A stretch of DNA of 64,000 nt from a virus, in the IMG/VR virus record IMGVR_UViG_3300024299_000001, positions 64,001 through 128,000 of that record. The stretch is one strand, 5' to 3'. The notes under the pieces are model-generated. The model worked only from the letters and a program-made list of their open reading frames with translations. It did no database searches and was not told the DNA's origin. The translations under genes were made by a program, and so were the position numbers. Positions 40,196-40,555 of this stretch are shown piece after piece. Position 1 is the first letter of the stretch. Each line of letters opens with the position of its first letter.

Positions 40196-40555
40196 TTGAA
40201 ATCTAGGCAAATTATGCGAGTCATAATTGGTTTGAAACCTGTTGTTAAAATACAAACTACTCCGGCTATGAAACCTATACTGAGATTGTGAGTTAGAAAT
40301 ATGCTGAAATCTATCTGTGCTGTGCGAGTTACAGGATGATTGAAACCTATTATGTTCATGCGAGTTACGATTGACTTGAAATCTACTACCAATATACGAG
40401 TTAAAGGAAAAATAAAATCTAAGGATTAAATACGAGTTACCATGCAATTGAAGTCTATGAACAAACTACGAGCCAAAAATATTCTGAAGTCTAAAATGCG
40501 GGTGCGAGCTACTATATGCATGAAATACATAAAGAGTTTGCGTAACATTAATTTT
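40196..40555 (+). repeat. 10 x 36-bp tandem interspaced array, each unit two conserved 9-mers plus two unique 9-mers (TIGR-like guide RNA array)
   Basis: Units start at 40196, 40232, 40268, 40304, 40340, 40376, 40412, 40448, 40484 and 40520. Block 1 (unit positions 2-10) has consensus TGAARYCTA. Block 2 (positions 20-28) has consensus T-R-C-G-A-G-Y-Y-A, with T20 and A28 invariant. Positions 11-19 and 29-37 differ in every unit. Confidence 0.8.

Follow-up and report, generated by a model that had tools for sequence, protein, structure and literature searches.

Results

Organization of the Locus

The window analyzed here is a stretch of 64,000 nucleotides (nt) of viral DNA, positions 64,001 to 128,000 of the IMG/VR record IMGVR_UViG_3300024299_000001, and its own numbering is used throughout. 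On its plus strand, a gene for a 289-amino-acid (aa) Nop-domain protein without a nuclease domain (tasA, 39305–40174) is followed by an array of short alternating repeats (40179–40547) and by a gene for a 201-aa protein (40573–41178). The first repeat element starts 5 nt after the end of the tasA open reading frame (ORF). The stop codon of tasA, TAA, lies at 40172–40174 and is not overlapped by a further half-degenerate repeat unit, as an earlier first-pass annotation of the sequence had it; the array begins with a truncated repeat at 40179. The locus is very probably a dual-repeat TIGR-TasA system, an accessory cassette of an N4-like phage. TIGR-Tas systems were described in 2025 (Faure et al. 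2025, PMC12045711).

Within the array, variable segments of 9 nt separate two alternating 9-nt repeats, with a period of exactly 36 bp. When 40088–40627 is laid out in rows of 36 nt, ten unit starts fall between 40196 and 40520 at a constant step of 36, with block 1 (TGAARYCTA) at unit positions 2–10 and block 2 (TRCGAGYYA) at unit positions 20–28, just as the annotation had described. T20 and A28 are constant in all ten units and the 20 variable 9-mers are all distinct; both of these earlier counts held when they were repeated. The motif TGAARYCTA-N9-TRCGAGYYA, with up to three mismatches, has 11 matches in the 64-kb window, nine of them in phase on the plus strand at 40197–40511. The expectation is 0.88 (SD 1.04), and 0 of 100 dinucleotide-preserving shuffles reached 11 matches. 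The 36-nt spacing was also recovered by a repeat search; Tandem Repeats Finder reported only 2.2 copies because the spacers differ. The periodicity of the array is real and not a product of chance. Units 2 and 10 are degenerate, as had been noted, and block 1 of unit 7 (TAAAATCTA) deviates too. Two minus-strand ORFs (146 and 85 aa) run across the array; a coding reading of them was ruled out, since the spacer positions carry no information in relatives.

Dual-repeat TIGR arrays have two alternating repeats of 8–12 nt, spacers of ~9 nt, and typically 5–15 units. The array described here, with ten 36-nt units of two 9-nt repeats and 9-nt spacers, lies within this range. [quoted passage not shown] In this family, a leading UG serves as box D and a trailing CCA-type triplet as box C (PMC12045711). 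Both repeats in the window start with a box D and end with a box C (UG-AARY-CUA in block 1 and UR-CGAG-YYA in block 2), box C being CUA or UUA and not CCA.

Register and Predicted Processing of the Array

The two repeats are those of the TaTIGR and ParTIGR arrays, in which TGAAACCCA and TGCGAGCCA alternate with 9-nt spacers (Table S1, PMC12045711), with C-to-T changes: TGAARYCTA corresponds to TGAAACCCA and TRCGAGYYA to TGCGAGCCA. For TaTIGR and ParTIGR, the processing to 36-nt RNAs and the targeting rule are experimental (PMC12045711). A synthetic mature TaTasR tigRNA2 has the layout AGCCA-UCAUAUAUA-UGGAACCCA-UGCCGCAGA-UACG, and the optimized TaTasR target consists of spacer A followed by the reverse complement of spacer B, read 5′ to 3′ (PMC12045711). 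The layout of tigRNA2 identifies block 2 of the window as the edge repeat and block 1 as the A-rich loop repeat. By analogy, the edge repeat is predicted to be cut in its middle, at URCG^AGYYA, which would release ten 36-nt tigRNAs from 40183–40542. In each, 5 nt of an edge repeat (AGYYA) at the 5′ end and 4 nt of the following edge repeat (URCG) at the 3′ end would enclose, in this order, spacer A, the loop UGAARYCUA, and spacer B, both spacers being 9 nt long. The unit register and spacer pairing given in the first-pass annotation were off by half a unit when compared with the mature TaTIGR RNA. In the TaTIGR register, the working spacer pair is formed by the second variable segment of unit n and the first variable segment of unit n + 1, and the target search proposed in the annotation would therefore pair the wrong 9-mers.

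The ends of the array are truncated. The first edge repeat (TTAAAGCTA, 40179–40187) keeps only its 3′ half, AGCTA, as the predicted 5′ end of tigRNA1, and is followed by the first spacer (40188–40196). The last edge repeat (TGCGTAACA, 40539–40547) keeps only its 5′ half, TGCG. The terminal repeats retain exactly the halves that would enter mature RNAs, and array ends with truncated repeats have also been described before (PMC12045711). Transcription in the direction of tasA, favored by the annotation, agrees with the related loci, in which all arrays lie on the tas strand. The reason offered for it, a GA dinucleotide in both blocks as in a box C/D kink-turn, fails because tigRNA repeats are compact and lack kink-turns (PMC12045711).

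In the structure of TasR, the tigRNA's 5′ and 3′ ends, which come from consecutive edge repeats, form two base pairs (PMC12045711). In the window, the equivalent trans pairs join position 7 or 6 of one edge repeat to position 2 or 3 of the one that follows; they correspond to G2-C7, with its G·U and A-U variants, and to C3-G6. All 20 are standard, against 15 of 18 pairs within single edge repeats. When the order of the nine internal edge repeats was shuffled, 20 standard pairs were reached in 250 of 20,000 trials. Among the trans pairs are U-A, formed when the next edge repeat carries A2, and A-U, formed where TGTGAGTTA comes after the odd edge repeat TACAAACTA. Independent compensatory cases in the same trans sense were observed at two related loci, L038 (...GTCA then TA...) and L023 (...AACGA then TGT...), and at a third, L041, U3-A6 replaces C3-G6 across the whole array. 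These trans-compensatory changes provide a testable lead on selection acting on the mature 36-nt RNA. The whole array transcript, on the other hand, is no more structured than its shuffles (z +1.81), which fits the reported lack of long duplexes in TIGR precursors (PMC12045711).

The Nop-Domain Protein

A phmmer search of the PDB with the 289-aa protein returned TaTasR (9mty_A, E 4.1e-21) and TasH (21kl_A, E 5.9e-4). The 9MTY entry is the cryo-electron microscopy structure of TaTasR with tigRNA and target DNA (PMC12045711). An AlphaFold2 model of the protein built from 40 homologs has a predicted local distance difference test (pLDDT) score of 89.5, and the top Foldseek match of this model is again 9mty (E 1.6e-9, TM 0.60), followed by TasH and then by the IS621 recombinase. 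Pfam gave sub-threshold matches only, to helix-hairpin-helix and IS110-type families, and the PHROG label is “transposase”, from similarity of the IS110 C-terminal type. No nuclease family was found in Pfam or PHROGs. The modeled protein begins with a long coiled-coil helix (residues 6–37), and in the alignment neither residues 1 to ~120 of TaTasR nor the HNH region of SpTasH has a counterpart. The lack of a RuvC or HNH domain places the protein in the TasA subtype, for which binding rather than cleavage is expected. The earlier proposal of a dual-spacer TIGR array next to a Nop-domain Tas protein is hence upheld by the protein sequence, the predicted fold, the repeat homology, and 43 related loci, with the refinement that the Tas protein is a nuclease-free TasA and would bind, not cut. 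Three members of the clade (A0A6M3KKC6, A0A091G1W5, and A0A0F9MQ43) are in the TIGR hidden Markov model seed alignment of the 2025 paper.

Two features of TasA stand out. A zinc-ribbon insertion of ~40 aa with a CxxC...CxxC pattern (approximately residues 106–149, 39620–39751) sits after the helix-hairpin-helix motif. Its cysteines C114, C117, C130, and C133 are invariant in the 40 homologs, and the segment is modeled as β strands. In the alignment, the zinc ribbon is absent from TaTasR, ParTasR, SpTasH, and FpTasA; a DNA wedge and a contact with the partner protein are candidate roles. The second feature lies in a flexible C-terminal loop of low pLDDT (40091–40114), where Y263 (codon 40091–40093) and H270 (codon 40112–40114) align with Y289 and H296 of SpTasH, the catalytic residues in the metal-independent maturation of pre-tigRNA (PMC13421893). 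Y263 is invariant in the 40 homologs and H270 is conserved in at least 90%. Analogous to SpTasH, the Y263/H270 dyad is predicted to cut pre-tigRNA.

Conserved Repeats and Variable Spacers in Related Loci

A protein search found 162 homologs of TasA, none of which carries a functional name. An alignment scan of IMG/VR gave 54 loci, which together with an earlier scan and one look-up made up the 59 tas loci of the array survey. With copies of the same contigs set aside, the same two repeats were present in 44 array loci (the window and 43 related IMG/VR loci), and every array was on the tas strand. Over the 499 units of these loci, the repeat positions hold 0.6–2.0 bits, mostly 1.1–2.0, the lowest (0.6 bit) being the middle base of the edge box C, and the spacer positions hold 0.0–0.1 bits.

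Shared spacer pairs occur only within four groups of near-identical contigs. Relatives at 35%–70% TasA identity keep the repeats and have entirely different spacers. In the closest distinct relatives (68%–69% identity), the arrays count 13, 8, and 1.5 units; they end in TGCGTAAC as the array of the window does, and their spacers are unrelated. The ending reads TGCGTAAC(C/A) in L002 and L003, and the array of ~1.5 units is that of L004. Degenerate 3′ halves of the last edge repeats are general among the relatives. The first-pass annotation had suggested that related phages carrying identical variable segments in identical order would indicate iterons instead of spacers, and the comparison gave the opposite pattern: repeats but not spacers are kept, and identical arrays are confined to near-identical strains.

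Seven assemblies of the phage, from several samples, carry an identical array except for two single-nucleotide polymorphisms. One (40386, C/T) falls on the base with which spacer B of tigRNA6 begins; the other (40473, C/G) affects position 7 in edge repeat 8, where it would disrupt one of the end pairs of tigRNA9. No gain or loss of spacers was seen among these assemblies. Across loci, the G+C content of the spacers follows that of the carrier (r 0.63, n = 36).

Phage Context and the Partner Gene

To judge from its genes, the phage is N4-like. An open frame of 2066 codons runs off the left end of the window on the minus strand (1–6198) and matches the family of N4-type virion RNA polymerases (phrog_2206, E 6.6e-84). 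The primase shares 51% identity with its counterparts in Vibrio N4-like phages, and the gene order matches that of Vibrio phage D505, itself a phage with a virion RNA polymerase gene. D505 has a 207-bp gene between the DUF2201 gene and the Dda-like helicase. The same position in the window holds tasA, the array, the 201-aa gene, and an HNH endonuclease. This context of the cassette is shared only by the other assemblies of the same phage, which indicates that the cassette is mobile among phages. No close homolog was found in 50,697 GenBank phages, a megablast search of 38000–42500 against GenBank phages gave no match, and in the literature searched TIGR-Tas was not tied to N4-like phages. The annotation's statement that no such array had been annotated in an N4-like phage agrees with these searches, with the proviso that the contig itself is publicly available through IMG/VR and that the 2025 seed alignment includes the clade; in this sense, the kind of locus is already known.

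The 201-aa gene (40573–41178) is preceded by a ribosome-binding site, AAGGAG, at 40557–40562. Its product, here called the partner, consists of a helical domain at the N terminus and a coiled coil at the C terminus; in the AlphaFold2 model (pLDDT 88) it is all-helical, and its C-terminal helix is long. In 47 of 59 tas loci, a homolog is encoded next to tasA in the same orientation, and in relatives arrays are often also found upstream of tasA and after the partner gene. The family comprises 336 clusters at 50% identity. Searches of Pfam, PHROGs, PADLOC, PDB profiles, and, by Foldseek, PDB and BFVD structures returned coiled-coil noise only. TasParB was considered as an identity for the partner and ruled out, as the protein is all-helical, has no ParB match in Pfam, PDB, or BFVD, and lacks the DGFHR motif. 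The partner is not obligatory: at L009, whose TasA is 68% identical, an unrelated 87-aa ORF (3559–3822) follows the array instead.

No terminator-like site was found between tasA, the array, and the partner gene. Downstream of the partner gene, a stem structure with a U-run (41192–41283, plus strand) has a 9-bp outer stem (AGCAGGGCA/TGCCCTGCT) that encloses further hairpins. It folds at −27.8 kcal/mol (z −4.05), and 0 of 200 shuffles fold as well. This is probably the terminator of a unit made up of tasA, the array, and the partner gene, though unusually large for one. Scans for sigma-70 promoters and terminators around the array gave nothing above shuffles, such scans being ill-suited to N4-like phages.

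Other observations were made in the surrounding region. A second HNH/NUMOD4 endonuclease gene (41799–42425, plus strand) separates the TIGR module from the Dda-like helicase. There is no HNH gene at this place in IMGVR_UViG_3300022888_000011, where the helicase begins ~340 bp past the partner gene, so the HNH gene varies between strains. Upstream, a MoxR-like ATPase gene (36206–38123, plus strand) is split into a 68-aa Walker A piece (36206–36412) and a remainder (37098–38123), with an HNH/NUMOD4 ORF at 36518–37111; this suggests insertion of a homing endonuclease or intron into the ATPase gene. Where the structural genes of the minus strand give way to the early and replication genes of the plus strand, a 47-bp unit occurs twice (26818–26913, 82% matches) and may be a promoter or regulatory duplication.

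Discussion

Proposed Mechanism

From the anatomy of the locus, its homologies, the comparative pattern, and the conservation of catalytic and pairing positions, we infer a course of transcription, processing, DNA binding, and repression. The tasA gene, the array, and the downstream 201-aa gene would be co-transcribed from the plus strand. In the pre-tigRNA, TasA dimers would be bound to the two boxes of each repeat, the leading box D (UG/UA) and the trailing box C (CUA/UUA/CCA), and the Tyr263/His270 dyad would cut the edge repeats between URCG and AGYYA to give the ten 36-nt tigRNAs (40183–40542). The ends of each RNA, AGYYA (5′) and URCG (3′), would be joined by two base pairs, and the loop repeat may form a tetraloop-like turn closed by G-C. 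At an 18-bp DNA site, spacer A would then pair with 9 nt of one strand and spacer B with 9 nt of the other. The expected outcome is RNA-guided DNA binding that blocks transcription or replication of the target, not cleavage. FpTasA binds 36-nt tigRNAs (PMC12045711), and MbTasA has guide-dependent DNA binding and reversible transcriptional repression (bioRxiv 10.64898/2026.09.09.750476). By analogy with MbTasA, transcriptional repression may be the activity of TasA here.

Weighing of the Evidence

Several observations weigh against a functional TIGR-TasA system. The array has no terminator directly 3′ and continues into a ribosome-binding site and a gene, unlike the typical description of TIGR arrays. 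Repression is known from MbTasA, which is a different protein, and not from a dual-repeat TasA of this clade. The repeats of the window are more degenerate than those of its relatives (CUA or UUA stands in box C in place of CCA), the loop repeats of tigRNAs 2, 7, and 10 are deviant, and one edge repeat is TACAAACTA; some units may for this reason be weak or dead. Finally, searches for targets were negative. With the geometry of the TaTasR substrates, the predicted target is an 18-bp site, 5′-spacer A followed by the reverse complement of spacer B-3′. The ten 18-bp targets, searched on both strands of the window with up to four mismatches, gave the same counts as wrong-geometry and mispaired controls, and 362 tigRNAs from all loci, searched against the window and ~300 kb of related loci, also remained at control level. 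With no site above controls, self-regulation within the 64 kb is unlikely. Exact 18-mers of tigRNAs 4, 5, 6, 8, and 9 had 0–1 matches each in IMG/VR, on unrelated contigs, and the tigRNA4 18-mer had 14 matches in 185,579 GTDB genomes, in unrelated taxa, where ~17 were expected. An 18-bp site holds too little information for blind searches.

Two of the exact matches fall in coding sequence. The tigRNA4 target occurs on contig L060 at 9779–9796 (minus strand), inside a 2412-aa tail-fiber-like ORF, and the tigRNA8 target on contig L061 at 8751–8768 (plus strand), inside a 1172-aa ORF. Both were judged to be at about chance level, as there is one match per 18-mer and no second tigRNA matches either unrelated contig.

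The degeneracy of the repeats and the empty target searches would both be expected of a decaying or domesticated TIGR remnant, in which the array drifts in an AT-rich phage and holds no functional guides, and TasA, the partner, or both are kept for another role. The repeats of the window are the most divergent of the 44 array loci, with an edge box C of TTA where CCA, CGA, or CTA is found elsewhere; 3 of 10 loops and one edge repeat deviate; and the array of ~1.5 units at L004 indicates that arrays do erode in this clade. Against decay, the tasA frame is intact, with an invariant zinc ribbon and Tyr/His dyad, the 36-nt register is strict with no insertion or deletion, and the array is identical over seven assemblies from several samples. 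Moreover, the substitutions preserve pairing: the change of C7 to U keeps a G·U pair, A2 goes with U7 of the preceding edge repeat and A6 with U3, and all 20 trans pairs remain standard. Changes of this kind would not arise by drift, and a remnant is therefore an improbable account of the locus.

Two further explanations regard the array as something other than TIGR. The repeats could be double-stranded protein-binding sites, iterons or centromere-like elements bound by the 201-aa protein or by TasA in replication or partition. The array does lie within a block of replication genes, between the DUF2201 gene and the Dda-like helicase; arrays often flank the partner gene in relatives, as centromere repeats can flank par genes; and the partner has a predicted dimerizing coiled coil. 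However, arrays have a single orientation relative to tas in all 44 loci, the variable segments are unconstrained in sequence but fixed in length, and the point at which the terminal repeats break off is exactly the RNA processing site. The compensatory changes keep RNA-type pairs, G·U included, the repeats are homologous to arrays shown by RNA sequencing and cryo-electron microscopy to be guide RNAs, and the partner has no detectable similarity to ParB or to helix-turn-helix proteins. Binding sites of this kind are thus highly improbable. Hardly any weight can be given to a CRISPR-like mini-array or a box C/D small RNA cluster, which would act on RNA by 2′-O-methylation or work with Cas proteins in trans. 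The layout of regular repeats and spacers and the Nop domain common to box C/D ribonucleoproteins recall such systems, but the array has two alternating 9-nt repeats and not one of 25–36 nt, and no cas gene or PADLOC match was found among the four neighboring proteins scanned. The units are without the RUGAUGA/CUGA consensus and kink-turn-forming flanks, no Rfam family reached threshold in the window, and the closest proteins are TasR and TasH, not Nop5. A TIGR-TasA system remains the reading that we prefer.

Possible Role of the Cassette in the Phage

TIGR-Tas has so far been described as a two-part system. It is conceivable, if somewhat doubtful, that the TIGR-TasA cassette is a three-part module of tasA with its clade-specific zinc ribbon, arrays, and the 201-aa coiled-coil partner, in which the partner would be an accessory or effector and processing of the array would also control the partner mRNA. 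In a strictly lytic N4-like phage with its own RNA polymerases, such a module might silence genes of the host or of competing phages. The N4-like carrier, a partner that is not ParB, the zinc-ribbon insertion, and the trans-compensatory changes in the edge repeats are all absent from the TIGR-Tas literature searched.

The locus leaves the current picture of TIGR-Tas unchanged. Its array was recognizable from a reading of the sequence alone; CRISPR finders miss such arrays, which have no long repeats. The cassette is complete and apparently functional, and it is found in an N4-like phage, a member of a lytic group with a well-understood, polymerase-driven transcription program and many cultured relatives without the cassette. 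It would offer a clean natural setting in which to ask what use phages make of nuclease-free TIGR systems, and the partner gene is a testable lead on accessory factors.

Comparison with Known Systems

TaTIGR-TasR (Thermoproteota archaeon LB_CRA_1, 9MTY) and ParTIGR-TasR share near-identical repeats with the window, along with 9-nt spacers, a 36-nt unit, and truncated terminal edge repeats, and the Nop domain of TaTasR is the closest solved relative of the TasA described here. In contrast to TaTasR and ParTasR, this TasA has no N-terminal RuvC domain and has a zinc ribbon, and at the dyad position it has a Tyr where TaTasR has a Trp. Compared with TaTIGR, box C is CUA or UUA and not CCA, and the array is followed by a gene and not by a terminator. 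FpTasA (Flavonifractor plautii) and MbTasA (Minisyncoccota bacterium) are likewise solo Nop effectors encoded beside an array, but both are without the zinc ribbon, neither comes from an N4-like phage, and the FpTIGR repeats are of different types (AGTGTACC and AGTAACCC).

SpTIGR-TasH of Salicola phage CGphi29 is also phage-encoded and of the dual-repeat type, and its Tyr/His dyad, which lies in the C-terminal Nop loop and matures pre-tigRNA autonomously, aligns with Y263/H270; it differs in having an N-terminal HNH nuclease that cuts DNA, 8-nt spacers, and other repeats. The tasA-tasParB operons (Faure et al. 2025, fig. S14) have a second conserved gene as well, with arrays upstream, between, and downstream of the genes. 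TasParB, however, has a ParB/Srx fold and a DGFHR motif, whereas the 201-aa partner is all-helical and belongs to a different family. More distantly, the IS110/IS621 recombinases and the archaeal and eukaryotic box C/D ribonucleoproteins have in common with the locus an RNA-binding domain of the Nop type (Pfam Transposase_20) and a guide logic based on tandem spacers. The locus has none of the DEDD/RuvC transposase domain, single bridge RNA, kink-turn, L7Ae, or fibrillarin of these systems and has, instead, arrays of minimal 36-nt units.

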